Notes under the pieces: generated by a model | The model's input: only the letters and a program-made list of their open reading frames with translations | What the model was told of the DNA's origin: nothing | Databases searched by the model: none | In this document: piece after piece, positions 3,726-15,134 of the stretch | Position numbering within the stretch: position 1 is the stretch's first letter | Layout of the letters: each line of letters opens with the position of its first letter | Source of the DNA: a virus | Taxonomy: Duplodnaviria; Caudoviricetes | Length of the DNA: 64,000 bases | IMG/VR virus record: IMGVR_UViG_3300031851_000001 | Direction: 5' to 3' (one strand) | Made by a program: the position numbers and the translations under genes

Positions 3726-5437
3726 AGAGAGTTATTTTCACAACATATGACGATATAAAAAAAGAGAACGACCAGTGGGGAATGAATTATTACGCTACTG
3801 AGTCTATTAATGAATATTTTGATAGGTTAATCTCAAACAAAGAAGAGTATGCCAACAGTCTAATCAATGTTGAGTTTAAGTTTTATCACAATACGATGAA
3901 AGACTTTAATGTTGACACTGAACTAGAGTTTACAAAGGCTAATATATACAAACACCATATTATGGCAGAGTTAGCTGAAGAGTTTGACGAAGTTATGTAT
4001 GTAGATATGGATGTTGTTTTCAATACGGAAAAGAACGTGTTTGATGAATTGGATTTGAGTAAAGGCATTCACATCCAAGTACAGACACACGAAGTTACAA
4101 GCAAGGACATTGAAGGTGTTATGTTTGAAAATATCGGAAACCGTTCTCCTACATTGAAATACCACATCACAAAAGATTTATTAAATGGTAAAGATAACCA
4201 CGTAATGAATACTGGTATTATGATCGCCAAGTCTGAGCATATCAAGAAAATTAAATACATTGAAAGACTTCCTAGCATCATAAAAAGAATACAAGATATG
4301 CGAGTTTCTGGAGTAAGCAATGATGAATACAAATTTCTTAGAATGTATTACTACCCAAACAACGAAAGCATTTTTTCGTATATCATGGAAAGTACAGACA
4401 TTCCTTATGAGATTATGGATGAGAGATGGCACAAGATCATCAAAGATACCCCGCAACCATTGGATTGGGATAACATTGAGATTGCGCATTTCATAGGTAA
4501 AAAGTTTAGCACGTTCTTCCAAGATAAGACAAAGTTAATATATTCTATTTACATTGAAATACCCGATGAACACTTAGATAATCCAAGAGGACCTAAAGAC
4601 GATCCTGTAAACAAAAGCAAGCGAACTAAAGAAAGGCTGGCTGCATATAAAGATAAGCTGTACGACAACCATCTTGAATATGCACATGCTCAAAAGGCAA
4701 CTTATATTCACTTTGGCAGAGATGATAGATACGAAAAGTTTCGTGCTAGGTTTCCCGATTTGTCAGAATATGATATAATCAATTTATATAAGGTATATCT
4801 TTTAGATTACATGACGCACTATTATGATTTAGTATTGTACGTGGACTTTGATGTTTGGTTTGATAAATTCGAAGTTAACACCTTTGATTGGTTAATGGGT
4901 GAGCATCTGCTTTGTTGTGATGCAGCTAACGCTGAAAATTCTGGCGTAAAACTTTGGGATGCATTATATCTTAAAAACTATGATAAAGACTTTAGGTCAC
5001 CAGAAGCCAAGTATTGGAACTGCCATGCAATGTTATCTGAAGAAGATGTTGAGCCTGACAATTATGTTTTCAATACAGGTATTATGATGGCAAGTAAAAA
5101 GGTTATGGAACAGTTAGATTACTTTTCTGATATAGATGAAACCCTTGCTATGATGAAAGAACTAAAGGAAGACTCCATATATCCACCACAAGTGCAAGAA
5201 TCATTTGGGTACGACAATGAAACAATCATGGCGTACAAAGTTAAAATGAATAATGTGTTTGTGCAAAGATTATCTCAGACGTGGCATCTTAAACATATGA
5301 GCGAAAAAATTCAAGCGTTTGATAAAAATACAAATGAATATGAAATTAGTAAACAAAAACTAAAAGCAGAAATGGCTGAACACAATACAGTAATGGTTCA
5401 CATGATTTCTAAGAACTTTGGATTACTGGTCGAGTAA
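3722..5437 (+). CDS. tandem two-domain GT-A glycosyltransferase
   Basis: Two repeated halves with YVDMDV / YVDFDV DxD motifs, MNTGIM / FNTGIM, and NNESIF / DNETIM. Confidence 0.7.
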   Translation: MKRVIFTTYDDIKKENDQWGMNYYATESINEYFDRLISNKEEYANSLINVEFKFYHNTMKDFNVDTELEFTKANIYKHHIMAELAEEFDEVMYVDMDVVFNTEKNVFDELDLSKGIHIQVQTHEVTSKDIEGVMFENIGNRSPTLKYHITKDLLNGKDNHVMNTGIMIAKSEHIKKIKYIERLPSIIKRIQDMRVSGVSNDEYKFLRMYYYPNNESIFSYIMESTDIPYEIMDERWHKIIKDTPQPLDWDNIEIAHFIGKKFSTFFQDKTKLIYSIYIEIPDEHLDNPRGPKDDPVNKSKRTKERLAAYKDKLYDNHLEYAHAQKATYIHFGRDDRYEKFRARFPDLSEYDIINLYKVYLLDYMTHYYDLVLYVDFDVWFDKFEVNTFDWLMGEHLLCCDAANAENSGVKLWDALYLKNYDKDFRSPEAKYWNCHAMLSEEDVEPDNYVFNTGIMMASKKVMEQLDYFSDIDETLAMMKELKEDSIYPPQVQESFGYDNETIMAYKVKMNNVFVQRLSQTWHLKHMSEKIQAFDKNTNEYEISKQKLKAEMAEHNTVMVHMISKNFGLLVE

Positions 5438-6281
5438 GTGGACTCCAAGGAGTATAATGTCCTTTTATACTATTCTTATAACTATCATCCTGCTTCATAA
5501 GATGTAATGTTAAACCAATCTTAGAACCCTCAAATTCGGTTGGCGCATGCAGCACTGATGTATCTTGTACGATTGCATGGCAATGTTCCCACGGAAATAT
5601 ATTTTCAATACTTAACCCATCGTATACAGATAAAGGAATATGTTTAGGCATGATTTCTTTCAACTTATGTACGTCTCTATTACCAACATCAATATTATCC
5701 ACTCCATAATATGAGTAGTTCATATGCTTAATCACGTTATGGTAATTTGCAAAGGAAGCTATTTCCCTTCCCTTCATAAACATAGTTGCATGTCCACGAT
5801 ACCTTTGATGGAACGTTACATAAGTGCCGGGACCATTAATTTCTAGTGGTATAATAATATCTTTGTATGGTCTGTAACCATCTAAGTGCGTAACGGCGTC
5901 GGTATGTAAACCATATGGCTTTACAGCTTTAAACATTTGATCGCCAACACTCATAGGATCATCGCCAGCTATATCCGAATAGAATATTGTATCCTCACCA
6001 AACTCTTCATATATTTTTGGTCTGATAATATCTGATATTTCTTTGATAAGCATTGGATATACTATTCTATAAATATGTTCGTTAATTATTTCGCCATTTG
6101 TATTAAAGTGGTAATCCCATGCACATAGTAATTGTTCTCTTTCCGTGTCTGTTATGAAATCATGAATTACATAGGAAGGCTCGTTTTGATCTTTGAACAT
6201 CTTAACGTTTGGGTTATGTATAATGTCCATAGTTCTGAGTTCATCATCAGAAAAAGGTCTATCAGTTCTGTATATATTCAT
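5409..6281 (-). CDS. 2OG-Fe(II)/cupin oxygenase-like protein
   Basis: LHTD (HxD) with distal VLHAP His. Confidence 0.55.
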   Translation of the reverse strand: MNIYRTDRPFSDDELRTMDIIHNPNVKMFKDQNEPSYVIHDFITDTEREQLLCAWDYHFNTNGEIINEHIYRIVYPMLIKEISDIIRPKIYEEFGEDTIFYSDIAGDDPMSVGDQMFKAVKPYGLHTDAVTHLDGYRPYKDIIIPLEINGPGTYVTFHQRYRGHATMFMKGREIASFANYHNVIKHMNYSYYGVDNIDVGNRDVHKLKEIMPKHIPLSVYDGLSIENIFPWEHCHAIVQDTSVLHAPTEFEGSKIGLTLHLMKQDDSYKNSIKGHYTPWSPLTRPVIQSS

Positions 6282-6741
6282 TAGGTATTGCCTCTATTAC
6301 TTCTTGCCAAGTTTCTCTCATTACAAATTTCATCTGCAGCCTTTCATACGGTACTGGGTCAACCCAATGTCTTATATCGCCATTGTTAATTGCCATTGCT
6401 TCGTAAGGTACGTTGCCTACACCTTCAATACCTATAACTGGCGTTTGATCCATTAAGTTTATTTGTATAGATGTAACATGATCTTCATCATAGTGTATAG
6501 GTATGTCGTTATTAGTTTCTAACCAATAAAACCTTGGTCTATTATCAAACTGTTGAATATTCAAAGCCTCTGCTACTTCATTTATATTAGGGTCCTCACC
6601 TTGTTGCGGATAAGTCTGCCACCATTTATCTACTTGGTCAAACTGTTTCCACTGATACCAGCGTCCGGTATTTCGCCATGCCTCTGCTACTTCTCTAAAG
6701 CGCGGTTTATCTATTTTAAAGTTAAGATGTAGTAAATTCAT
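6262..6741 (-). CDS. 2OG-Fe(II)/cupin oxygenase-like protein
   Basis: IPIHYD (HxD), distal RHWV, C-terminal RLQMKF. Confidence 0.6.
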   Translation of the reverse strand: MNLLHLNFKIDKPRFREVAEAWRNTGRWYQWKQFDQVDKWWQTYPQQGEDPNINEVAEALNIQQFDNRPRFYWLETNNDIPIHYDEDHVTSIQINLMDQTPVIGIEGVGNVPYEAMAINNGDIRHWVDPVPYERLQMKFVMRETWQEVIEAIPNEYIQN

Positions 6742-7165
6742 ATTCAGATAATTCGTTAAAAATTTCTATTGCTTCATTAATTGGTTCTTGGAATGATATA
6801 TTGATACTATACCTAGTATGTTCGTTATTAAATACAGCATGCCTAGATTGAGTATTCAACAACATTACACCACTAAACGTTTCATCCTCAAAAGAGCAGG
6901 GTGCATAATGGCCAGATAGCGGATAGCTTAGTGCAGCGTTTCGTTTACCATCAACATGCCAATCCATAACGTCGTGTGGTTCTAACTTTATGAGTGCAAC
7001 ATTACGATTTGCAAATTTTAATCCTGTTTGATAATAATACATTCCCATACGATTACCTGATACTGTGGATTGATATGGTGTCCACTCTTTAACACTTTCA
7101 GCCATGTTTAAAAAATCGTTGTGACGCTCTTCCGATAAAAACCGTGGCAATTCATAATAATTCAT
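6722..7165 (-). CDS. 2OG-Fe(II) oxygenase-like protein
   Basis: DWHVD, distal RHAVFN, TRYSINISF. Confidence 0.7.
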   Translation of the reverse strand: MNYYELPRFLSEERHNDFLNMAESVKEWTPYQSTVSGNRMGMYYYQTGLKFANRNVALIKLEPHDVMDWHVDGKRNAALSYPLSGHYAPCSFEDETFSGVMLLNTQSRHAVFNNEHTRYSINISFQEPINEAIEIFNELSEYEFTTS

Positions 7166-7881
7166 TTGTAAAATCCTTTAAATATTCTAAATATTTCTTG
7201 GTGACCTTTTGCATTAGGGTGTCTATCTTGTTTGCTAATCATACAATCCCCTTGCATTAATTCTTCAAAACAACAACCGCCATATTGCCAGTGAAAAGGC
7301 CAACCAAACATATTGCCTTTTCTCTTGTGTATCATATTAAAGTAATTAGAGTCTAACATATCATATACATCTTTGTTTTCAACAAGTGGATATATCATTT
7401 GAAACACAATAAGTTCTATATTTTTGTGTGAACATAAATCCATTAATACATATAATTGAAATAGAGTTTCTTCTACAAGGCATTTTTTAGTATTATCATC
7501 AAATGGAATAATATTAAAATAATCGTCGTGTCTATTTGTCCATTTTTGATGTTTGGCTTTTTGTTCTTCAGACACGTCATTATCCCATACAACATTTTTG
7601 TTTGTGTTTGGATTAAAACGATTGTCACCGGGAGTAGAAAATCTATACCACTGAGATAAGGCTATAATACATCTAGTAGTATTACATGTATATATTTGTT
7701 TTATTGCTCTCTTTATTATTTCTACATTACCGAGAGCATCTCCATAAACGTTAACAACGTCCCAGTCATAATAATCTTGTAATAACTCATCCCACTTTGG
7801 ATATGATGTGTCGTAGCTGGGGTGGATCCTTGGAAAATAATTTCTGTTAGACCAACTGCAGCCAGACAGTATTGTTTTCAT
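7162..7881 (-). CDS. SGNH/GDSL hydrolase-like protein
   Basis: SGCSWS block I, DRHPNAKGH block V. Confidence 0.65.
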   Translation of the reverse strand: MKTILSGCSWSNRNYFPRIHPSYDTSYPKWDELLQDYYDWDVVNVYGDALGNVEIIKRAIKQIYTCNTTRCIIALSQWYRFSTPGDNRFNPNTNKNVVWDNDVSEEQKAKHQKWTNRHDDYFNIIPFDDNTKKCLVEETLFQLYVLMDLCSHKNIELIVFQMIYPLVENKDVYDMLDSNYFNMIHKRKGNMFGWPFHWQYGGCCFEELMQGDCMISKQDRHPNAKGHQEIFRIFKGFYK

Positions 7882-8372
7882 AACATAGTGCCGACGATAT
7901 GAGTTCGAGATGATGTAGAAGCATTAACAAATGTGTGAATGTTTGTTGTGTCTACCTCATAAACACTGCCATCTGCCGGCAGCCTAAAGATTTCATCGTT
8001 CATAACAAAGAAGTTATTATCGTTGGTTTCAATTGGTATATGTATTCTTTTAGTAAAGTCTTTGTGATAAGTATAACATGTTTTACCATTCAATATCATA
8101 ACCCTACTATATGCCAGATTGTATTTTCCTAACAAAGAGTTGATATATGGCAATGCAAAATGAAACTCAACCAAGTCTTTGGCTGTTACTTTCGTTTGTC
8201 TTTCCCAAGCGTTAGTTTGGTTTGTTGCAGGTACTATATGTTTAAATACACTATCTTCAACACGTTCACCTTGAAGTGCGTAAGTCGTTTCATGGTGAAT
8301 AAGAGATAACTCACTCTTAATTTTTTCGAGATCAACTGTATCAATTACTCTATAATAAGATTGTCTATCCAT
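7878..8372 (-). CDS. aspartyl/asparaginyl beta-hydroxylase family 2OG oxygenase
   Basis: YHKD..RIHIPIETN...HTFVNASTSSRTHIV. Confidence 0.8.
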   Translation of the reverse strand: MDRQSYYRVIDTVDLEKIKSELSLIHHETTYALQGERVEDSVFKHIVPATNQTNAWERQTKVTAKDLVEFHFALPYINSLLGKYNLAYSRVMILNGKTCYTYHKDFTKRIHIPIETNDNNFFVMNDEIFRLPADGSVYEVDTTNIHTFVNASTSSRTHIVGTML

Positions 8373-8809
8373 GCTTGTTCGCTCACTGTAAAATCATTTG
8401 GATGGTTAATTGTTATAGCGGTTTGTGTACCCGTAATTCCAGAAACGGAATTTTTAACGTGCGAGTCAATAAGATACCATTCTCCTGCTACCGCTGTAAT
8501 AGAAGACGTAACATTATCGTCAGCATCGTGAGCATGTAATATTGTGCCTACAGGATCAATAATATATAATATTCTCCAACGCGACTCCGTTGTAAAAATT
8601 CTACTATTTTTAGTCGAGTCTGACTCCTGATAACGAGTGTGTGAGTTATTTAAAATCTCTTCTAATATTTGTTCGTCTACTAAAGTTGATGTTGCGTCTG
8701 CAAGAGTCCAAGCAGTGTAATTGATAATTGAACTATCGTATTCAATTTCTAGTGCGTTGTGGATTGGCGAAGGCATTGTCAACTGTGGTAAGTTTAGTTT
8801 TTTAATCAT
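8345..8809 (-). CDS. cupin/oxygenase-like protein, possibly degenerate
   Basis: LHAHDAD and WYLIDSHVKNSV resemble the neighbouring oxygenases, but the distal His position appears to be Asn. Confidence 0.4.
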   Translation of the reverse strand: MIKKLNLPQLTMPSPIHNALEIEYDSSIINYTAWTLADATSTLVDEQILEEILNNSHTRYQESDSTKNSRIFTTESRWRILYIIDPVGTILHAHDADDNVTSSITAVAGEWYLIDSHVKNSVSGITGTQTAITINHPNDFTVSEQAWIDNLIIE

Positions 8810-9333
8810 TTTAGTTCTCCGAATGGAATGTCGTGTATCCCCATATGAAAGACGATACGTTCCTTTGTTGGCGATTTTACACCATGTGGTTTTTTTGTAT
8901 TAAGTACAGTCATAGTGTCATATACTATGGAGTCTCTTGTATTCCCATCATCAACATATAATTCGCCAGTATTTTCAGTTACAGGTATCAGTACTGAGCA
9001 ATGGCTCTTAACATCAACATGAACTGGCAACTCTCCACCTTCTAATACTCTAAAAAAGTTGCAGCGGAATTCTTGTGGTCTTATTTCAAATGTATTCCAT
9101 ATTTTTTTAATCAACCTAAGAAGTGGTCTATTAAAATTGTGTATCTCTTGGACAAAGAACTTATTCATTTCTTTACCACCTGTTGCATCACTAACATATT
9201 CTGAATATAGTTTATTACTATCAGTCCATTCGCCAGTTATATAATTTTCCCAAAAAATTGGGTCAACCTTATAATCAGTTTTTATAAACGAATCATTTAT
9301 CCATGTTTTATCCATGTAAATCTTCCTGACCAT
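8806..9333 (-). CDS. 2OG-Fe(II) oxygenase-like protein
   Basis: LPVHVD, distal KPHGV, ERIVFHM; true start may be the ATG at 9315. Confidence 0.7.
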   Translation of the reverse strand: MVRKIYMDKTWINDSFIKTDYKVDPIFWENYITGEWTDSNKLYSEYVSDATGGKEMNKFFVQEIHNFNRPLLRLIKKIWNTFEIRPQEFRCNFFRVLEGGELPVHVDVKSHCSVLIPVTENTGELYVDDGNTRDSIVYDTMTVLNTKKPHGVKSPTKERIVFHMGIHDIPFGELK

Positions 9334-10111
9334 TAACTGATATAATAATATGTGACCGTGTAGTCGTACCTTTGTTCCAAGCCGAATGCCTCATGCCTTG
9401 ATTTAAAAACCATAGTGATCCCGGTTCCATAGTCTGATTTATTTTGCTCCCATCTTTATCTATACAATAAAATCCACAATCATCATTTGTTGTAATCGGA
9501 ATATGAAACCGAATAGAATAATCGGTATTGTAGTCGATATGCTCGGCAACGTAAGCACCCGGCTCCATAATAGCAATTCTTGCTCGTGTAACTTCGCCTT
9601 TAAATGTTTTAAGTATTTCTTCTAGGTAAGTACCCTTTACCCAGTCTTTCATTAAGTTATAGTGTCTTTCGTCAAGTCTGCTTTTAGGTATTTTCTTTTC
9701 ATAGATCCGATCTTCTTCATCTGGGTTATATTTAGTCAAAGCAATTTGTTTATATGGCGATCCATTAACTTCAAATTTGCCCTTGCCATCTTCTACAATA
9801 TAATCTTCAAATGGCTTTACATAGTTTCTAAAATCCCAAGCCATACGCTTGCCGCCTAAACCATTACGGAACTCAGACTCTTTTACATCGTTATCTTGTA
9901 AGAATTGATAAGCATCTTCAATCGTATCAAATTTTAAACCAAAAGCTTTTTGTAACTTTGCAGTTTTTCCACCAACCAAATCTCCATAGCCATCTTTTTC
10001 TTTTAGATCGTCATTTTCTGGTGGCATATTACGAACAACTTCAATGATTTTGTTTACATCAAAATGTGCGTCAAGTTTTTGAAACGGTGGCAGCTCATAT
10101 CTGGTTTTCAT
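9308..10111 (-). CDS. aspartyl/asparaginyl beta-hydroxylase family 2OG oxygenase
   Basis: VAEHIDY..SIRFHIPI...HSAWNKGTTTRSHIII. Confidence 0.8.
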   Translation of the reverse strand: MKTRYELPPFQKLDAHFDVNKIIEVVRNMPPENDDLKEKDGYGDLVGGKTAKLQKAFGLKFDTIEDAYQFLQDNDVKESEFRNGLGGKRMAWDFRNYVKPFEDYIVEDGKGKFEVNGSPYKQIALTKYNPDEEDRIYEKKIPKSRLDERHYNLMKDWVKGTYLEEILKTFKGEVTRARIAIMEPGAYVAEHIDYNTDYSIRFHIPITTNDDCGFYCIDKDGSKINQTMEPGSLWFLNQGMRHSAWNKGTTTRSHIIISVNGQEDLHG

Positions 10112-10635
10112 AATTTTGTATATCCTTTATATTGTAAACATCCATGACCGTCACAAACCGGTACTTTTTTGTCATGCATATTCCATATTGTATCTGTTGC
10201 CATTGCCACTTTATTTATAAACTCTCGCAGCATTCTGGGGTTCTTTTCTCTACTTATAAATGCTGAGGTATATCCGAGTTCTTTTGCAAACTTCAATTGG
10301 TCTTTGACGGTAGATATAATATGGCTTCTTGCTAATTCTCTACCGATACGACGCAATTCTTGGTTTTCCCAATAACGATTTAATATTCTAACCTCACCCT
10401 TTTCATAATATTCAGGTCTATGCCATATAGAACTAAATCCTACTATGTCGTCACCATTTTGTAATATAGAAACACAATCAAACTGAAACCAGTCTAAACC
10501 ATCATAATTAACGTGGTCATAAACTGTTTCTGATAATTGCTTTATAATGTCTGGCCTATCCTCTGGAAAAAAGCTAGTGACACTACATTCTGAGTTCAGC
10601 AATGTCATTCCAAAACTCTTTCTTTTTCTTACCAT
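10108..10635 (-). CDS. GNAT-like acyltransferase (tentative)
   Basis: GDDIVGFSSI strand, RILNRYW...LRRIG, AKELGYTSAFIS pattern typical of GNAT folds. Confidence 0.45.
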   Translation of the reverse strand: MVRKRKSFGMTLLNSECSVTSFFPEDRPDIIKQLSETVYDHVNYDGLDWFQFDCVSILQNGDDIVGFSSIWHRPEYYEKGEVRILNRYWENQELRRIGRELARSHIISTVKDQLKFAKELGYTSAFISREKNPRMLREFINKVAMATDTIWNMHDKKVPVCDGHGCLQYKGYTKL

Positions 10636-11152
10636 GAATTAATAAATGTAATCTGTCTTCGTCAGAATTATTTTCAACCATATGTGGGTAGTGAATGTTT
10701 AAAACAAACGATGAACCGGGATGATATGGTATTTCCTCGCCGTCCATAACAAACTTACTTCCCTTTGGATATGTAATAGATATATTAAGAGGATCCAGCC
10801 AGTTATGTTCTGGCACATCGATATGTTCAGCAATATAACCACCAGATTTTATAACAAGATATCTGACATCATCTATTCGAGCATATGGTAATGAATTAAC
10901 AAAATCCATAGTTGCAGGACATTGCTTTCCAATTTCAGTAATATCCTTTTTAACTTTACGTCCATATTCCCAATGACTATTTGTATTATCAGAAGCAGTG
11001 CCGTATAATGTCATAGCAAACCAATCCTTATGACCATCCTCTGGTCTATGGATAACTAATGAGTCTTTGACTAATTTATATTCTTTTTCTATATCAGAGC
11101 AAGGAACATTAAAGTTCATCTTTACCCAATGTGCGTCGCTACTTCTTTGCAT
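10583..11152 (-). CDS. aspartyl/asparaginyl beta-hydroxylase family 2OG oxygenase
   Basis: IAEHID, HMVENNSDEDRLHLLIHG. Confidence 0.8.
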   Translation of the reverse strand: MQRSSDAHWVKMNFNVPCSDIEKEYKLVKDSLVIHRPEDGHKDWFAMTLYGTASDNTNSHWEYGRKVKKDITEIGKQCPATMDFVNSLPYARIDDVRYLVIKSGGYIAEHIDVPEHNWLDPLNISITYPKGSKFVMDGEEIPYHPGSSFVLNIHYPHMVENNSDEDRLHLLIHGKKKKEFWNDIAELRM

Positions 11153-11693
11153 GATGATCACTGTGGTTTCCTTCAAGTGGAGCAAAAAGATTTATCCACC
11201 ATTTATTAGCAGCGCCGTCGTCGTCATGGGCTACCAAATTAAGTAATCCGTAAAACATAAATGATGTTGGTAATAATAACAATAAATGCGCAAGAAATAT
11301 TGGATTTATATAAAATGCTACAATATAAGTTATAACGAAAACATATAATTTGTTCTTGTGGAAAAACATAACTCTTGGATTATTATAAAGGTCCTTTACA
11401 AACTTTCTTGGTATATGCTTTACTTTATAAGCCGAAAACAATACTTCATACCATTTTTTATATTTTGGACTATGTGGGTCTAACTCAGTATCAGCATATG
11501 CGTGATGCATACGATGAACGCCTGCCCAACTTAATGGCGAACATGCGCTAGCCATAGTACCTAAGTAAATTATTATTGTTTCTAATATTGGGTGCAGTTT
11601 TATTTGCTTATGTGATATGCATCTATGATACCCTATCGTCAACCCGACAGCAGCTACTACCCAATAAAATATATAAAAGTGGACTAAAAACAT
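11139..11693 (-). CDS. compact membrane fatty-acid desaturase (delta-9-like)
   Basis: Three His boxes YHRCISH, HRMHH, NHSDHH; hydrophobic segments; GAGG SD before the ATG at 11693. Confidence 0.85.
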   Translation of the reverse strand: MFLVHFYIFYWVVAAVGLTIGYHRCISHKQIKLHPILETIIIYLGTMASACSPLSWAGVHRMHHAYADTELDPHSPKYKKWYEVLFSAYKVKHIPRKFVKDLYNNPRVMFFHKNKLYVFVITYIVAFYINPIFLAHLLLLLPTSFMFYGLLNLVAHDDDGAANKWWINLFAPLEGNHSDHHAKK

Positions 11694-11720
11694 AATTATC
11701 CTCAAAAACCTTCATGTAGT

Positions 11721-11728
11721 TATTTATA
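11721..11728 (-). promoter_or_regulatory. T4-type late promoter driving the oxygenase cluster
   Basis: TATTTATA on the plus strand, 28 nt upstream of the desaturase start. Confidence 0.65.
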
Positions 11729-11732
11729 TCTA

Positions 11733-11760
11733 TTGACATTGTTTGAAAACCGTATATAAT
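11733..11760 (+). promoter_or_regulatory. sigma70-type promoter
   Basis: TTGACA-N16-TATAAT. Confidence 0.55.
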
Positions 11761-11844
11761 AGATTTATCTACTAAACAATAATAATAGTTGTTATAATGG
11801 CTGTAACAAAATAGTAACAGTATTTTTATTAAAATGGAAATCTA

Positions 11845-11873
11845 TTGACATTTTAGCTCTACTGTATTATATA
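11845..11873 (+). promoter_or_regulatory. sigma70-type promoter of the tmRNA gene
   Basis: TTGACA-N17-TATATA just upstream of the acceptor piece. Confidence 0.6.
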
Positions 11874-11879
11874 TAACTA

Positions 11880-12162
11880 GTGAACGTTGAAATGACGTGA
11901 ATACGGATCGGACCTCGGGGCAGTACCGAGCATCTCCACCAAATTTACTCTGTAGGGTAAAAACTGATAATTTACTTTGTAGAGTAAATTTGATGGGGAT
12001 GAACAAGGATCGACGGACGGAATAGCTTAATGGAGTTCATCGGGTGATCGCGTATAGATCAATTAAACTAAATGCAAATGAAAATTTCGCACCATCTGGA
12101 TTTGCTCTAGCAGCATAATCACAGGGGGGTTGTCCACTTACCTAGCAACAGAAAAGTGGTAC
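11880..12162 (+). ncRNA. ssrA: circularly permuted (two-piece) tmRNA
   Basis: T-arm and acceptor 3' end GACCTCGG-GGCAGTA-CCGAG-CATCTCC-ACCA (11911-11941) precede the 5' end GGGGATGAACAAGGATCGAC (11995); acceptor stem has G3:U70; tag ANENFAPSGFALAA* at 12074-12118 follows TAAAT; 3' pseudoknot at 12129-12159. Outer ends are approximate. Confidence 0.93.
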
Positions 12163-12193
12163 TTAATAAAACTATTACAAGGAAAAAGGTAAC

Positions 12194-12982
12194 ATGGGTA
12201 AATTCTTATTAACAACGGCACTAACTTTGGTAGCCGGTGCAGCGATTGCACAGGAAGTAACCGAAGCACCAGTAGGATTAACTGGTAAAATTGAAACAGT
12301 AATTGCTGAAGGTGCTGGTGGAGATTGGGGTGCAACGTCATCTTTTGATCTTGGCGTATCTGCAGGATCTGGCTTAGCATCAGGTTCTATGTCTTTCGTC
12401 GTTGACTCAAATAACGATTTGGCTTTAGACGAATATTCAATCGGTACATCAATCGGTGGAACTGAATTGTCATTTGGAGACCAAGGCAATATTTGGATTG
12501 ACACAGAAAACGGTTCTTCTATTGAAGAAGCAAAGATTGCTGATGAAAGCATTCAAGCAACTATCGCAGGTGTATCAGTAGCAGCCGGCTTAAACATGGA
12601 TGATTTAACTGACATTCAAAACGTACAAGCTGGTTACGGTATTCCATTAGGAATTGCTAACATCAACGCAGTAGGTGACTATAACCTAAACAGTGAATCA
12701 TGGATTGTAGCAGGTCGCGCAGACACAGACGGTATGTTGGAAAATGTACGTATCGGTGGTGCAGTATCATACGGTTCAATTTCAGAAAAACTTGGCTTTG
12801 AAGCTGACGCTACAGTAGGACCATTAACTGGTTATATTGGCGGTGACCAAGATGATCTAATGAAAGATGCAGGCGTTAATGGTGAAGTTGCTGTTGCAGG
12901 TATCGATGTAGAAACTAAATTGAACTATAACTTTGACAGTGAAGAATTAACACCATCAGTTGGTTTAAGTTTCAACTTCTAA
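12194..12982 (+). CDS. outer-membrane porin-like beta-barrel (alphaproteobacterial type)
   Basis: Signal peptide ending AAIA-Q, acidic Gly/Asp-rich alternating beta-strands, C-terminal GLSFNF. Confidence 0.75.
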   Translation: MGKFLLTTALTLVAGAAIAQEVTEAPVGLTGKIETVIAEGAGGDWGATSSFDLGVSAGSGLASGSMSFVVDSNNDLALDEYSIGTSIGGTELSFGDQGNIWIDTENGSSIEEAKIADESIQATIAGVSVAAGLNMDDLTDIQNVQAGYGIPLGIANINAVGDYNLNSESWIVAGRADTDGMLENVRIGGAVSYGSISEKLGFEADATVGPLTGYIGGDQDDLMKDAGVNGEVAVAGIDVETKLNYNFDSEELTPSVGLSFNF

Positions 12983-13004: not shown

Positions 13005-13027
13005 AGAGGGGCTTCGGCTCCTCTTTT
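13005..13027 (+). terminator. intrinsic terminator with UUCG loop
   Basis: AGAGGGGC-TTCG-GCTCCTCT-TTT. Confidence 0.8.
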
Positions 13028-13033
13028 AGTTTG

Positions 13034-13041
13034 TATAAATA
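13034..13041 (+). promoter_or_regulatory. T4-type late promoter
   Basis: TATAAATA upstream of the heme oxygenase. Confidence 0.6.
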
Positions 13042-13074: not shown

Positions 13075-13617
13075 ATGACTAATAAATTGAAGCAACTCAC
13101 ATGGGCACATCACCAAGCAGCTGAACGTAGAAAATTTGCTAAGCAACTAATTAGTGGTGGCATAGACCCATTCGTATATTATAAGTTTTTAAATTGTCAG
13201 TACTTAGTATACAGACTATTAGAAGACATTGTAATTATTCCACCAAACCTTACTGCAATTTATAGAGCTCCGCGTATTCTTCAGGATATGGATGAGTTAT
13301 CAGAAATTTATGGATTTGACGATATTGATAGTTATCCAGAATCAGTTGGCAGATGTATGACACACATGCAAGGATTGGCTGATGCAGACGATAACGATAG
13401 TCTATTAGCACATATGTATGTAAGGCATTTTGGTGAACTTCATGGTGGACAAATCATTAAAGCTAAGACACCCGGAAAAGGGATTATGTATGAATTTGAA
13501 GGTGACACAAAAGTACTTATCGAAGAATTTAGAAAACTATTGCACGATGGTATGGAAGTAGAAGCTAAGAAATGCTTTGATTTCGCATCAGAATTATTTG
13601 ACGAATTATCCAAATAA
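13075..13617 (+). CDS. hemO: heme oxygenase
   Basis: LKQLTWAHHQAAE proximal His helix; AHMYVRHFGELHGGQII distal helix. Confidence 0.9.
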   Translation: MTNKLKQLTWAHHQAAERRKFAKQLISGGIDPFVYYKFLNCQYLVYRLLEDIVIIPPNLTAIYRAPRILQDMDELSEIYGFDDIDSYPESVGRCMTHMQGLADADDNDSLLAHMYVRHFGELHGGQIIKAKTPGKGIMYEFEGDTKVLIEEFRKLLHDGMEVEAKKCFDFASELFDELSK

Positions 13618-13683: not shown

Positions 13684-13851
13684 ATGCAAGATGACGCATT
13701 AGATACAGTTAACCTTAAACCAAAACCGCGCGCTGAACGAATGCTTAAAAGTAACAGCGCACGTCGGCGGCGAAGTGTACTCAAATCAATTAGAGAAACA
13801 CGTTTGTTAAATGAATTCGCAAAACTCCGAAGATTAAGAAAAAGCAAATGA
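13684..13851 (+). CDS. 55-aa Arg/Lys-rich hypothetical protein
   Basis: AAGGAG SD, ATG at 13684, stop overlaps the next ATG (ATGA); absent from the ORF track because it is under 60 aa. Confidence 0.6.
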   Translation: MQDDALDTVNLKPKPRAERMLKSNSARRRRSVLKSIRETRLLNEFAKLRRLRKSK

Positions 13852-14534
13852 CTCCATTATGGGATAAATTGAATGATTACGCTGCGCATATTCGTGGCAA
13901 GTTTCAAGACAACTTTACTGAATATGAAGAGCCTGCTATGAACGATCTTTATTTTAAAGATTGGGATGATAGGTTTTGGCATTCACCCATTGTTAATAAA
14001 GCACATTTAAAGACTATCGTACCAGCAGATGGTAAAGGTCTTTGGTTGATGCACGTTAATGTTTTCCCTAAGGCTGGTTTAGAATTGCCAATCTTAGGGT
14101 TTGACATCGTTGCTGGACCAAAGAAAATTACTGGTTCGTTTATGGATTTCTCTCCGCTGCATGGCTTTGAGCATCCATATAGTGATTACATGGCTAATAA
14201 GGTTAAAGACTTAGAATGGAATAAACCAAGAGAACTACCAGATTGGGCAAAAGAAATATTTTCAAAATCAATGATTGCAGTTGGAAATATTAATACTGAT
14301 AAAGAATTAGACCAATTCATTGCTGTAACATCAGATCTAGTTAATTATTATTTAGATAATTTAAAAGATATGACTTATGTATCAAATCGCGATACATCAC
14401 CTTTATTAAACAAATATTGTGTTAACCAAAAGAAAAATCCGCACCTTCATCGGTCAATACTTGCTATGGGTATTACTGAAGAAGACAAAGACGATTATGT
14501 AAATAATGTTCTTTTTGCGGAGATTAACGGTTGA
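13848..14534 (+). CDS. pcyX: ferredoxin-dependent bilin reductase, PcyA/PcyX group
   Basis: KAHL, LWLMHVNVFP, LPILGFDIVAG, MDFSP, RELPDWAKEIFS, YCVNQKKNPH. Confidence 0.85.
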   Translation: MTPLWDKLNDYAAHIRGKFQDNFTEYEEPAMNDLYFKDWDDRFWHSPIVNKAHLKTIVPADGKGLWLMHVNVFPKAGLELPILGFDIVAGPKKITGSFMDFSPLHGFEHPYSDYMANKVKDLEWNKPRELPDWAKEIFSKSMIAVGNINTDKELDQFIAVTSDLVNYYLDNLKDMTYVSNRDTSPLLNKYCVNQKKNPHLHRSILAMGITEEDKDDYVNNVLFAEING

Positions 14535-14677: not shown

Positions 14678-14878
14678 ATGGCAGGCGACACTATTATTAT
14701 GGAAAAAGCAGGTAAAACACTTAAGGCTGAATACTTCAGTACAACTGATGGCAGCGGATGCCGGTTTTTTATTAATGAAGAATTTATTCAAGAAGAACTA
14801 TATGAAGGTAAGTCAATTCATTGGGCAGAAAGCGCGGCTGAAAACTGGCTTAGTGGGGTTAAATCATTGAATGGATAA
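14678..14878 (+). CDS. hypothetical protein
   Basis: AAGGA SD before the ATG at 14678; ends WAESAAENW; overlaps the gp33 start. Confidence 0.6.
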   Translation: MAGDTIIMEKAGKTLKAEYFSTTDGSGCRFFINEEFIQEELYEGKSIHWAESAAENWLSGVKSLNG

Positions 14879-15134
14879 AGGCAATTCCCAAGAAAAAGTT
14901 ATTAACCCTCGTACGCCTGAAAAGGTACATCACGAGATTTCAAGCATGTTATCAAATGGAGTTAATTATATTGATGCGTTAGTTGAATACGCGCGACAAA
15001 ATGGATTGGAAATAGAGGCAGTAGCCGATATAGTCAAAAAGTCTTCTATCCTAAAAGAAAAAGTTAGGACTGAAGCAGTGAAAATGAAAATGGTGATAAA
15101 AGATGATCAAGACATCACAGAGCTTTGCGAATGA
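14871..15134 (+). CDS. gp33: late-promoter transcription coactivator
   Basis: NYIDALVEYARQNGLEIEAVADIV...LKEKVRTEA; synteny with 59 and 32. Confidence 0.85.
   Translation: MDKGNSQEKVINPRTPEKVHHEISSMLSNGVNYIDALVEYARQNGLEIEAVADIVKKSSILKEKVRTEAVKMKMVIKDDQDITELCE

Follow-up and report, generated by a model that had tools for sequence, protein, structure and literature searches.

A complete circularly permuted, two-piece tmRNA gene in an uncultured marine T4-like phage

The stretch of DNA analyzed here, called the window throughout, comprises 64,000 nucleotides and is part of an 81.9-kb IMG/VR virus record whose completeness is estimated at 38%. Sequencing runs of marine and seawater samples, from about 15 studies, contain DNA almost identical to this stretch. 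When ARAGORN is applied to the whole window, a single RNA gene is called, a permuted tmRNA (tmRNA*) at 11849-12209 with the tag ANENFAPSGFALAA. The permuted order is apparent from the two tRNA-like halves, since the CCA of the 3' half ends at 11941 and the 5' half begins with GGGGAUG at 11995. On the plus strand, the RNA gene is followed by a gene for a 262-residue protein, a terminator, heme oxygenase (hemO), a bilin reductase, a gp33-like coactivator, gp59, gp32, UvsX and the gp41 helicase. On the other side, tightly packed minus-strand genes (5409-11705) point away from the tmRNA promoters; TATAAATA also occurs on the minus strand at 11721-11728. The coordinates of the individual features are collected in Table 1.

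Table 1. Features of the tmRNA locus and its neighbours in the window.
Feature	Coordinates	Strand	Basis or remark
Asp/Arg beta-hydroxylase-like (2OG-oxygenase) cupins	9308-10111, 10583-11185	-	
Fatty-acid desaturase	11139-11705	-	
P1, perfect sigma-70 consensus TTGACA-16-TATAAT	11733-11760	+	12/12 consensus matches
P2, TTGACA (11845-50), 17-base spacer, TATATA (11868-73)	11845-11873	+	Conserved in relatives
Acceptor piece (3' part of the tRNA-like domain)	11880-11941	+	tmRNA_permuted model begins at 11880
Intervening spacer	11942-11994	+	Expected to be removed during maturation
Coding piece	11995-12163	+	Rfam alignment
Tag frame ANENFAPSGFALAA plus UAA, resume codon GCA	12074-12118	+	ARAGORN
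3' H-type pseudoknot	12127-12159	+	Stem 1 12127-30/12140-43; stem 2 12134-39/12154-59
262-residue protein, signal-peptide-like N-terminus	12194-12982	+	RBS and ATG about 30 bases past the pseudoknot
First intrinsic-terminator-like site downstream of the tmRNA	13005-13034	+	8-pair stem, 5 G-C pairs, T-rich tail
Heme oxygenase (hemO)	13075-13617	+	PF01126
Ferredoxin-dependent bilin reductase	13848-14534	+	PF05996
gp33-like late-transcription coactivator	14871-15134	+	

The original prediction for this locus, made from the letters of the DNA, had proposed a phage-encoded, circularly permuted two-piece tmRNA with an intact tag ending in ALAA, and had named ARAGORN and the Rfam alpha_tmRNA model as means of examining it. 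Both bear the proposal out, as does a second Rfam model. ARAGORN returns the permuted gene with the very same tag. The alpha_tmRNA model (RF01849) aligns over 11825-12163 with 104.5 bits (E 1.8e-27; curated cut-off 50 bits), and the tmRNA_permuted model (RF04321) over 11880-12118 with 100.7 bits (cut-off 47 bits). The beta (RF01850) and cyano (RF01851) models reach 29 and 17.2 bits, both below their own cut-offs, and the tmRNA is therefore of the alphaproteobacterial type. Such agreement among detectors on a permuted tmRNA is far above chance. What lies at the locus is a complete two-piece (circularly permuted) ribosome-rescue RNA gene, real and well formed, in an uncultured marine T4-like phage. 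It is a divergent tmRNA, given that its score of about 105 bits compares with 284 bits for the bacterial alpha tmRNA in assembly FZLS01; in the Rfam alignment it also lacks about 40 model positions past the stop codon.

The T-arm of the acceptor piece is made up of CUCGG (11914-18) and CCGAG (11926-30), which enclose the loop GGCAGUA (11919-25). It is followed by the 3' acceptor strand CAUCUCC (11931-37), the discriminator A11938 and an encoded CCA (11939-41). The coding piece opens with the 5' acceptor strand (11995-12001), where GGGGAUG forms seven pairs with CAUCUCC, among them G3 (11997):U70 (11935). In addition, the acceptor piece holds strands of helices that join it to the coding piece, whose own strands of these helices lie at 12008-11 and 12035-40; the pre-resume region, the tag frame and the 3' pseudoknot complete the coding piece. 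The resume codon GCA is preceded by UAAAU. The T-arm, acceptor strands, CCA, GGGGAUG, resume site and tag frame all stand exactly where the original prediction had placed them, and the alanyl wobble G3:U70 that it had noted is read in the window as well.

Comparison with other viral sequences supports these assignments. Scanning IMG/VR by pattern for an alpha-type T-arm and acceptor end yielded at least 119 viral contigs, and ARAGORN found permuted tmRNAs in 71 of 120 loci examined. About 17 of these 71 form a close family with the window gene, being 73-88% identical over the aligned parts. For the analysis of covariation, 16 viral copies were aligned and a consensus fold was derived, in which 26 of the 56 predicted pairs show compensatory changes. 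The acceptor stem occurs in the variants AUG/CAU, CUG/CAG, GCG/CGC and GUG/CAC, two of its pairs having undergone 4 and 8 two-sided changes, and the T-arm contains three covarying pairs (9, 8 and 5 two-sided changes in the 16 sequences). The inter-piece helices 11880-85/12035-40 and 11906-09/12008-11 are kept and covary across the 16 copies, and G3:U70 is invariant (G:U in 16/16). The family alignment defines the promoter, the likely ends of both pieces, the spacer stem and the pseudoknot.

The family tags fit the form AN[E/D/N]N[F/Y][A/K]PSG[F/Y/L]ALAA. Among 14 relatives with tags of equal length, the variable sites are distributed over the first, second and third codon positions as 4, 5 and 12, and the codon differences over all pairs comprise 406 synonymous versus 177 non-synonymous changes. 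This bias toward third positions points to selection on the peptide. Near the end of the tag, a hairpin (12104-06/12112-14) covaries at synonymous sites.

The spacer of the precursor forms a hairpin with about 22 pairs (11940-61/11971-92), stacked on the acceptor stem, and the precursor has a minimum free energy of -84.7 kcal/mol and a z-score of -4.66. Relatives have spacers of about 25 to 170 bases, yet the outer stem (11943-52/11980-89) is kept by many compensatory changes. A segment that is excised but whose structure matters for processing would be expected to show this combination of variable length and covarying stem. The tetranucleotide UGAU directly before G1 is invariant among relatives. 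An arrangement of the spacer as two tandem hairpins was considered and rejected, as both folding and covariation favour one long hairpin. A promoter-like site within the spacer (11944-71, 9/12 matches) is at chance level (5 sites vs 6.5 expected), and separate transcription of the two pieces was thus dropped as a reading.

Upstream of the resume codon, a hairpin, one stem of a putative pseudoknot, covaries between UGAUC/GAUCA in the window and UUGGC/GCCAA in relatives. At the 3' end of the coding piece, the original prediction had drawn an H-type pseudoknot, of which the knot type and stem 2 are upheld by covariation (three covarying pairs in stem 2). Its stem 1 was not retained, because the first-drawn pairing (12129-32/12146-49) is broken without compensation in two of 16 relatives. 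The replacement pairing given in Table 1 is kept in 16/16 with two covarying pairs by column-pair count (GC 10/AU 6 and UA 14/CG 2) and none broken.

Two sigma70 promoters had been proposed upstream of the gene, and both withstand closer inspection, P1 by its perfect consensus and P2 by its conservation in relatives. P1 lies about 112 bases upstream of the acceptor piece, and its -35 box falls inside the recurring motif CTATTGACAT. Ten exact copies of this motif are present in the window, mostly intergenic, and with one mismatch allowed there are 18 matches vs 7.6 expected, a number reached by none of 100 shuffles. About 17 bases after the motif follows TATATT or TATAAT (-10 consensus TATATT), and CTATTGACAT looks like the early promoter of the phage. 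Sites on the plus strand include those at 11730, 11842, 13618, 49360, 55891, 56522, 62686 and 63137.

P2 was missed by a strict consensus scan; its -35 motif and spacing match the other early-type CTATTGACAT promoters of the phage. In 11 of 17 copies, namely the window, nine of 15 relatives and the isolate phage Melnitz, which is discussed below, an exact TTGACA, a 17-base spacer and a TATA[T/A]AT-like -10 box occupy the same position relative to the acceptor piece; TTTACA or TTTACT variants occur in two more. The geometry of P2 predicts that transcription starts at about 11880, where the acceptor piece begins, and with such a start this piece may need no 5' trimming. In a subgroup of loci (L040, L042, L045, L117, L123, L146), the -10 box of the tmRNA promoter is TATAAATA and the TTGACA -35 box is retained. 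In these loci, TATAAATA, the T4 late-promoter consensus, precedes the acceptor piece by about 5-8 bases, and its combination with the -35 box suggests that expression both early and late is possible.

Downstream, the terminator scan found nothing ahead of the next gene (12194), which leaves the coding piece without a defined 3' end. The protein encoded by that gene has no Pfam or PHROG match. An atlas feature search returned viral-only clusters first and then Gram-negative porin (Porin_4) clusters at 0.94, so the protein is possibly porin-like. Homologues with 35-93% identity come after the tmRNA in 11 related viral loci. Linkage of the tmRNA to the hemO-bilin reductase cassette is seen in most close relatives whose contigs reach that far, with hemO in 16 and bilin reductase in 14 of the 23 loci searched. 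The locus order of the family is tmRNA, (porin-like gene), hemO, bilin reductase, gp33 and gp59. In four loci (L040, L042, L045, L123), hemO begins right after the tmRNA. Papers on hemO-pcyX phage scaffolds may also mention a tmRNA.

The original prediction knew of no characterized permuted tmRNA in a phage, and the novelty thus implied does not hold. Marine-phage two-piece tmRNAs were described and surveyed in 2022 (PMC9004378), and a 2025 database catalogues phage tmRNAs (PMC11915505). In the earlier study, Buchholz et al. described a two-piece tmRNA in the OM43 phage Melnitz and reported tmRNA genes in 402 of 18,146 phage genomes, which correspond to 133 unique structures. Of these structures, 53 are two-piece, 50 of the 53 originate from marine or aquatic phages, and permuted tmRNAs were present in 17 of 47 contigs of the cluster of Melnitz and pelagimyophages (PMC9004378). 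The tmRNA database of 2025 holds 79 unique bacteriophage sequences and describes that permuted tmRNA precursors are cut by tRNA-processing enzymes (PMC11915505). Two-piece tmRNAs seem to be concentrated in marine phages. Since the kind has been described and catalogued, the window gene is a further member from a different uncultured lineage. For phage two-piece tmRNAs, no direct evidence of processing, charging or tagging was found in the literature.

Melnitz EXVC044M (MZ577097) offers the closest point of comparison. A blastn search of the gene against 50,697 phage records gave no match at E 1e-5; at E values up to 10, Melnitz ssrA matches best among isolate phages, with 72.8% identity across 62% of the query. 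Like the window phage, Melnitz is a marine T4-like phage (Kyanoviridae), and its ssrA is likewise a permuted tmRNA of alpha type with a similar alpha_tmRNA score (106.7 vs 104.5 bits). It shares TTGACA-17-TATA[T/A]AT just upstream, the spacer stem and AUGAU before GGGG. Its annotated SsrA lies upstream of gp33-gp59-thyX-gp32, as the window tmRNA lies upstream of gp33-gp59-gp32. The two nevertheless differ in several respects. The tag of Melnitz is ANDNYVPVDYALAA instead of ANENFAPSGFALAA, and the porin-like gene and the hemO-bilin reductase cassette stand between the tmRNA and gp33 in the window but not in Melnitz. Conversely, a glutamine riboswitch (RF01739, 52.8 bits, L146:4367-4415) is located, as already published, just 3' of the tmRNA pseudoknot in Melnitz, whereas a search for it in the window found none. 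Matches to MIR5380 and CrcZ in the riboswitch search were far under their cut-offs and were discarded. The two phages are distant, with 34% identity in gp59 and 33% in gp33.

With the alphaproteobacterial two-piece tmRNAs (RF01849), whose function was shown in Caulobacter according to the work of Keiler et al. (2000) as cited in PMC9004378, the window gene has in common the order of acceptor piece, spacer and coding piece, the T-loop GGCNGUA, G3:U70, the encoded CCA, a tag of the form AN-N...ALAA and a 3' pseudoknot with the conserved ...GCAACAGAA... loop. Unlike them, it resides in a lytic-type phage and has a protein gene directly after it. Other phage ssrA genes are further removed. Those of the mycobacteriophages of the Bxz1 group and of Bacillus phage G, for which no phage smpB was reported, are one-piece, and phage DS6A, also with no phage smpB reported, carries a tagless ssrA consisting of the tRNA-like domain only (PMC4131195). 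The hosts of these phages are Gram-positive or actinobacterial, and the sequences are unrelated to the window gene. Against this background, the window copy is a well-supported member from an abundant uncultured marine lineage and opens no new category. The additions to what was known are modest and consist of a tag family confined to phages, a 5' end defined by a promoter, a spacer hairpin that covaries and linkage to the hemO-bilin reductase cassette.

The original prediction had further tied the phage to an alphaproteobacterial host. The RNA is of alpha type (104.5 bits), and this part of the claim stands. The host assignment does not follow from it, as the Melnitz tmRNA is also of alpha type and its host is a gammaproteobacterial OM43 strain (PMC9004378). 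In a BLAST search against 400 sampled alphaproteobacterial genomes, matches were confined to about 35-50 bases around the T-arm. Taken together, the host of Melnitz and the restriction of the matches to the T-arm indicate that the tmRNA type records the ancestry of the gene and not the present host. The case for an alphaproteobacterial host is accordingly weak, and the comparison serves as a warning that the tmRNA type alone is unfit to predict the host of a phage. By UvsX, the closest isolate is phage C48C1 (Kyanoviridae, 65% identity), in which a permuted tmRNA was not found; the gene therefore is dispensable in this phage group. SmpB was not found in the 82-kb record (38% complete), in the complete Melnitz genome or in C48C1, and its absence from the record and from Melnitz fits a reliance on host SmpB.

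A degenerate search for the tag family AN[E/D/N]NFAPxGxALAA across 185,579 species genomes retrieved only two phage-like contigs, both from one assembly (FZLS01, 'Rhodobacteraceae bacterium Water_Bin34'). The two contigs have a G+C content of 35-36% and carry the phage cassette, and it appears that phage contigs have been binned into the FZLS01 genome. In this assembly (L122-L130, L134), the alpha_tmRNA model gives seven matches above the cut-off and one weaker match. The bacterial-type tmRNA among them, with 284 bits and the tag ANDNKAPMALAA, lies on a stretch of 34% G+C, and there are several copies of the phage type with 51-114 bits. Three of the four FZLS01 contigs searched for the cassette contain hemO.

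The T4-like flanking genes (gp33, gp59, gp32, UvsX and gp41), the virus record and the position similar to that in Melnitz support the reading of the locus as a phage ssrA. With the identity of the gene, its structure, its conservation under selection, its phage context and the conservation of its promoter documented above, the locus is probably a functional ssrA gene by which an uncultured marine T4-like phage encodes an alpha-type two-piece tmRNA. Transcription would start at or next to 11880 from P2, a conserved promoter of host type, backed by P1. In the folded precursor, the long spacer hairpin would extend the acceptor stem; host RNase P would presumably cut 5' of G11995, and trimming would lead to the encoded CCA at 11941. 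The acceptor piece of about 62 bases and the coding piece would be released in this way and remain base-paired. Host alanyl-tRNA synthetase could then charge the RNA via G3:U70, and host SmpB would bring it to stalled ribosomes, where translation is predicted to resume at GCA 12074. The addition of ANENFAPSGFALAA to the nascent chain would mark it for ClpXP-type proteolysis. The likely benefit is that ribosomes are kept free during infection, when the decay of host mRNA generates many non-stop messages and the expression of host ssrA may fall.

Other readings of the same gene were weighed against that of a working phage ssrA. It is unlikely, on balance, that the phage RNA interferes with host trans-translation or redirects it, instead of merely adding to rescue, be it by competing for SmpB or by means of a phage-lineage tag that alters the fate of tagged proteins, e.g., degradation to recycle amino acids. 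The occurrence of the tag family on just the two phage-like contigs among the 185,579 species genomes would suit such a role. So would the strong inhibition of tmRNA by a DS6A-like molecule consisting of the tRNA-like domain only, perhaps through titration of SmpB (PMC4131195), and the selective tagging of host proteins proposed by Buchholz et al. (PMC9004378). However, the canonical ALAA end and the alphaproteobacterial AN-N start are kept, so that a different fate is not indicated, and selection of the tag frame for its peptide argues against a tagless decoy. A related and equally doubtful conjecture is that the phage lineage evolved a private tag (...NFAPSG[F/Y/L]ALAA), absent from all cellular genomes searched, together with the placement of the tmRNA first in an early operon with the porin-like gene and the hemO-bilin reductase cassette. 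If this were true, the role of the RNA would go beyond that of a reserve factor for rescue. The RNA could be a phage-specific tool for re-tagging host nascent chains for proteolysis or for outcompeting host tmRNA, and the downstream mRNA could also owe its 5' end to processing of the tmRNA.

Little weight is likewise given to the possibility, raised in the original prediction, that the phage copy replaces a host tmRNA which is destroyed or depleted during infection, whether by a defence nuclease or by phage shut-off. The early-type promoters that drive the tmRNA gene are in line with it, and T4-like phages shut off host transcription, which also counts in its favour. On the other hand, no report of a tmRNA-targeting defence system was found and nothing in the window suggests one. 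Replacement is in any case a special case of the working phage ssrA and is inseparable from it by sequence data.

Distinctly less probable than either is a tmRNA-like element that acts mainly as a 5' processing or stabilizing module for the downstream mRNA, i.e., that of the porin-like gene or, in some relatives, of hemO directly, with rescue being secondary or lost. The missing terminator ahead of the next gene and the linkage of the tmRNA to the hemO-bilin reductase cassette in close relatives would agree with such a module, as would contigs from RNA runs that span the end of the tmRNA and the downstream gene, one of them joined to an adapter at 12039. Yet a conserved tag frame, G3:U70, an encoded CCA and the resume context are all kept although a module of this kind would need none of them, and the downstream neighbour in Melnitz is a different one. 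Finally, the idea of a passenger, be it a fragment of host ssrA, the remnant of an attachment site or a bacterial contig miscalled as viral, could appeal to tmRNA genes being common integration sites (PMC4383910), and to some of the at least 119 viral-contig pattern matches lying at contig ends and perhaps being such remnants, but it is contradicted by the data and barely credible, as the gene is complete, is flanked by T4-like core genes downstream and densely packed genes upstream, is conserved, with covariation, among lytic-type phage contigs that have diverged, and is without a close counterpart in cells.

The RNA-run data consist of assembled contigs of metatranscriptome runs, which are blind to RNA ends, strand and level and may include DNA carry-over, and they provide weak hints of the transcription and structure of the tmRNA. 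In four runs from four studies, contigs extend from 12031-12039 through the tag and the pseudoknot into the downstream gene, and the end of the neighbouring minus-strand gene (11600-11723) is without cover in three of the four. The starts at 12031, 12033 and 12039 differ from each other and may represent breaks between strains or points at the inter-piece helix where reverse transcription stopped. Contigs hardly cover the acceptor piece and the 5' part of the coding piece (11848-12030), an absence that is uninformative, and short contig pieces at 11909-42 and 11754-86, whose flanks are unlike, come from relatives. The contig with the adapter measures 1002 bases and meets the Illumina sequence exactly at the edge of the inter-piece helix; if it is colinear with the window, it ends at about 13018, inside the predicted terminator. 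In another contig, 12134 C>T and 12159 G>A occur side by side, so that stem 2 of the pseudoknot is naturally compensated.
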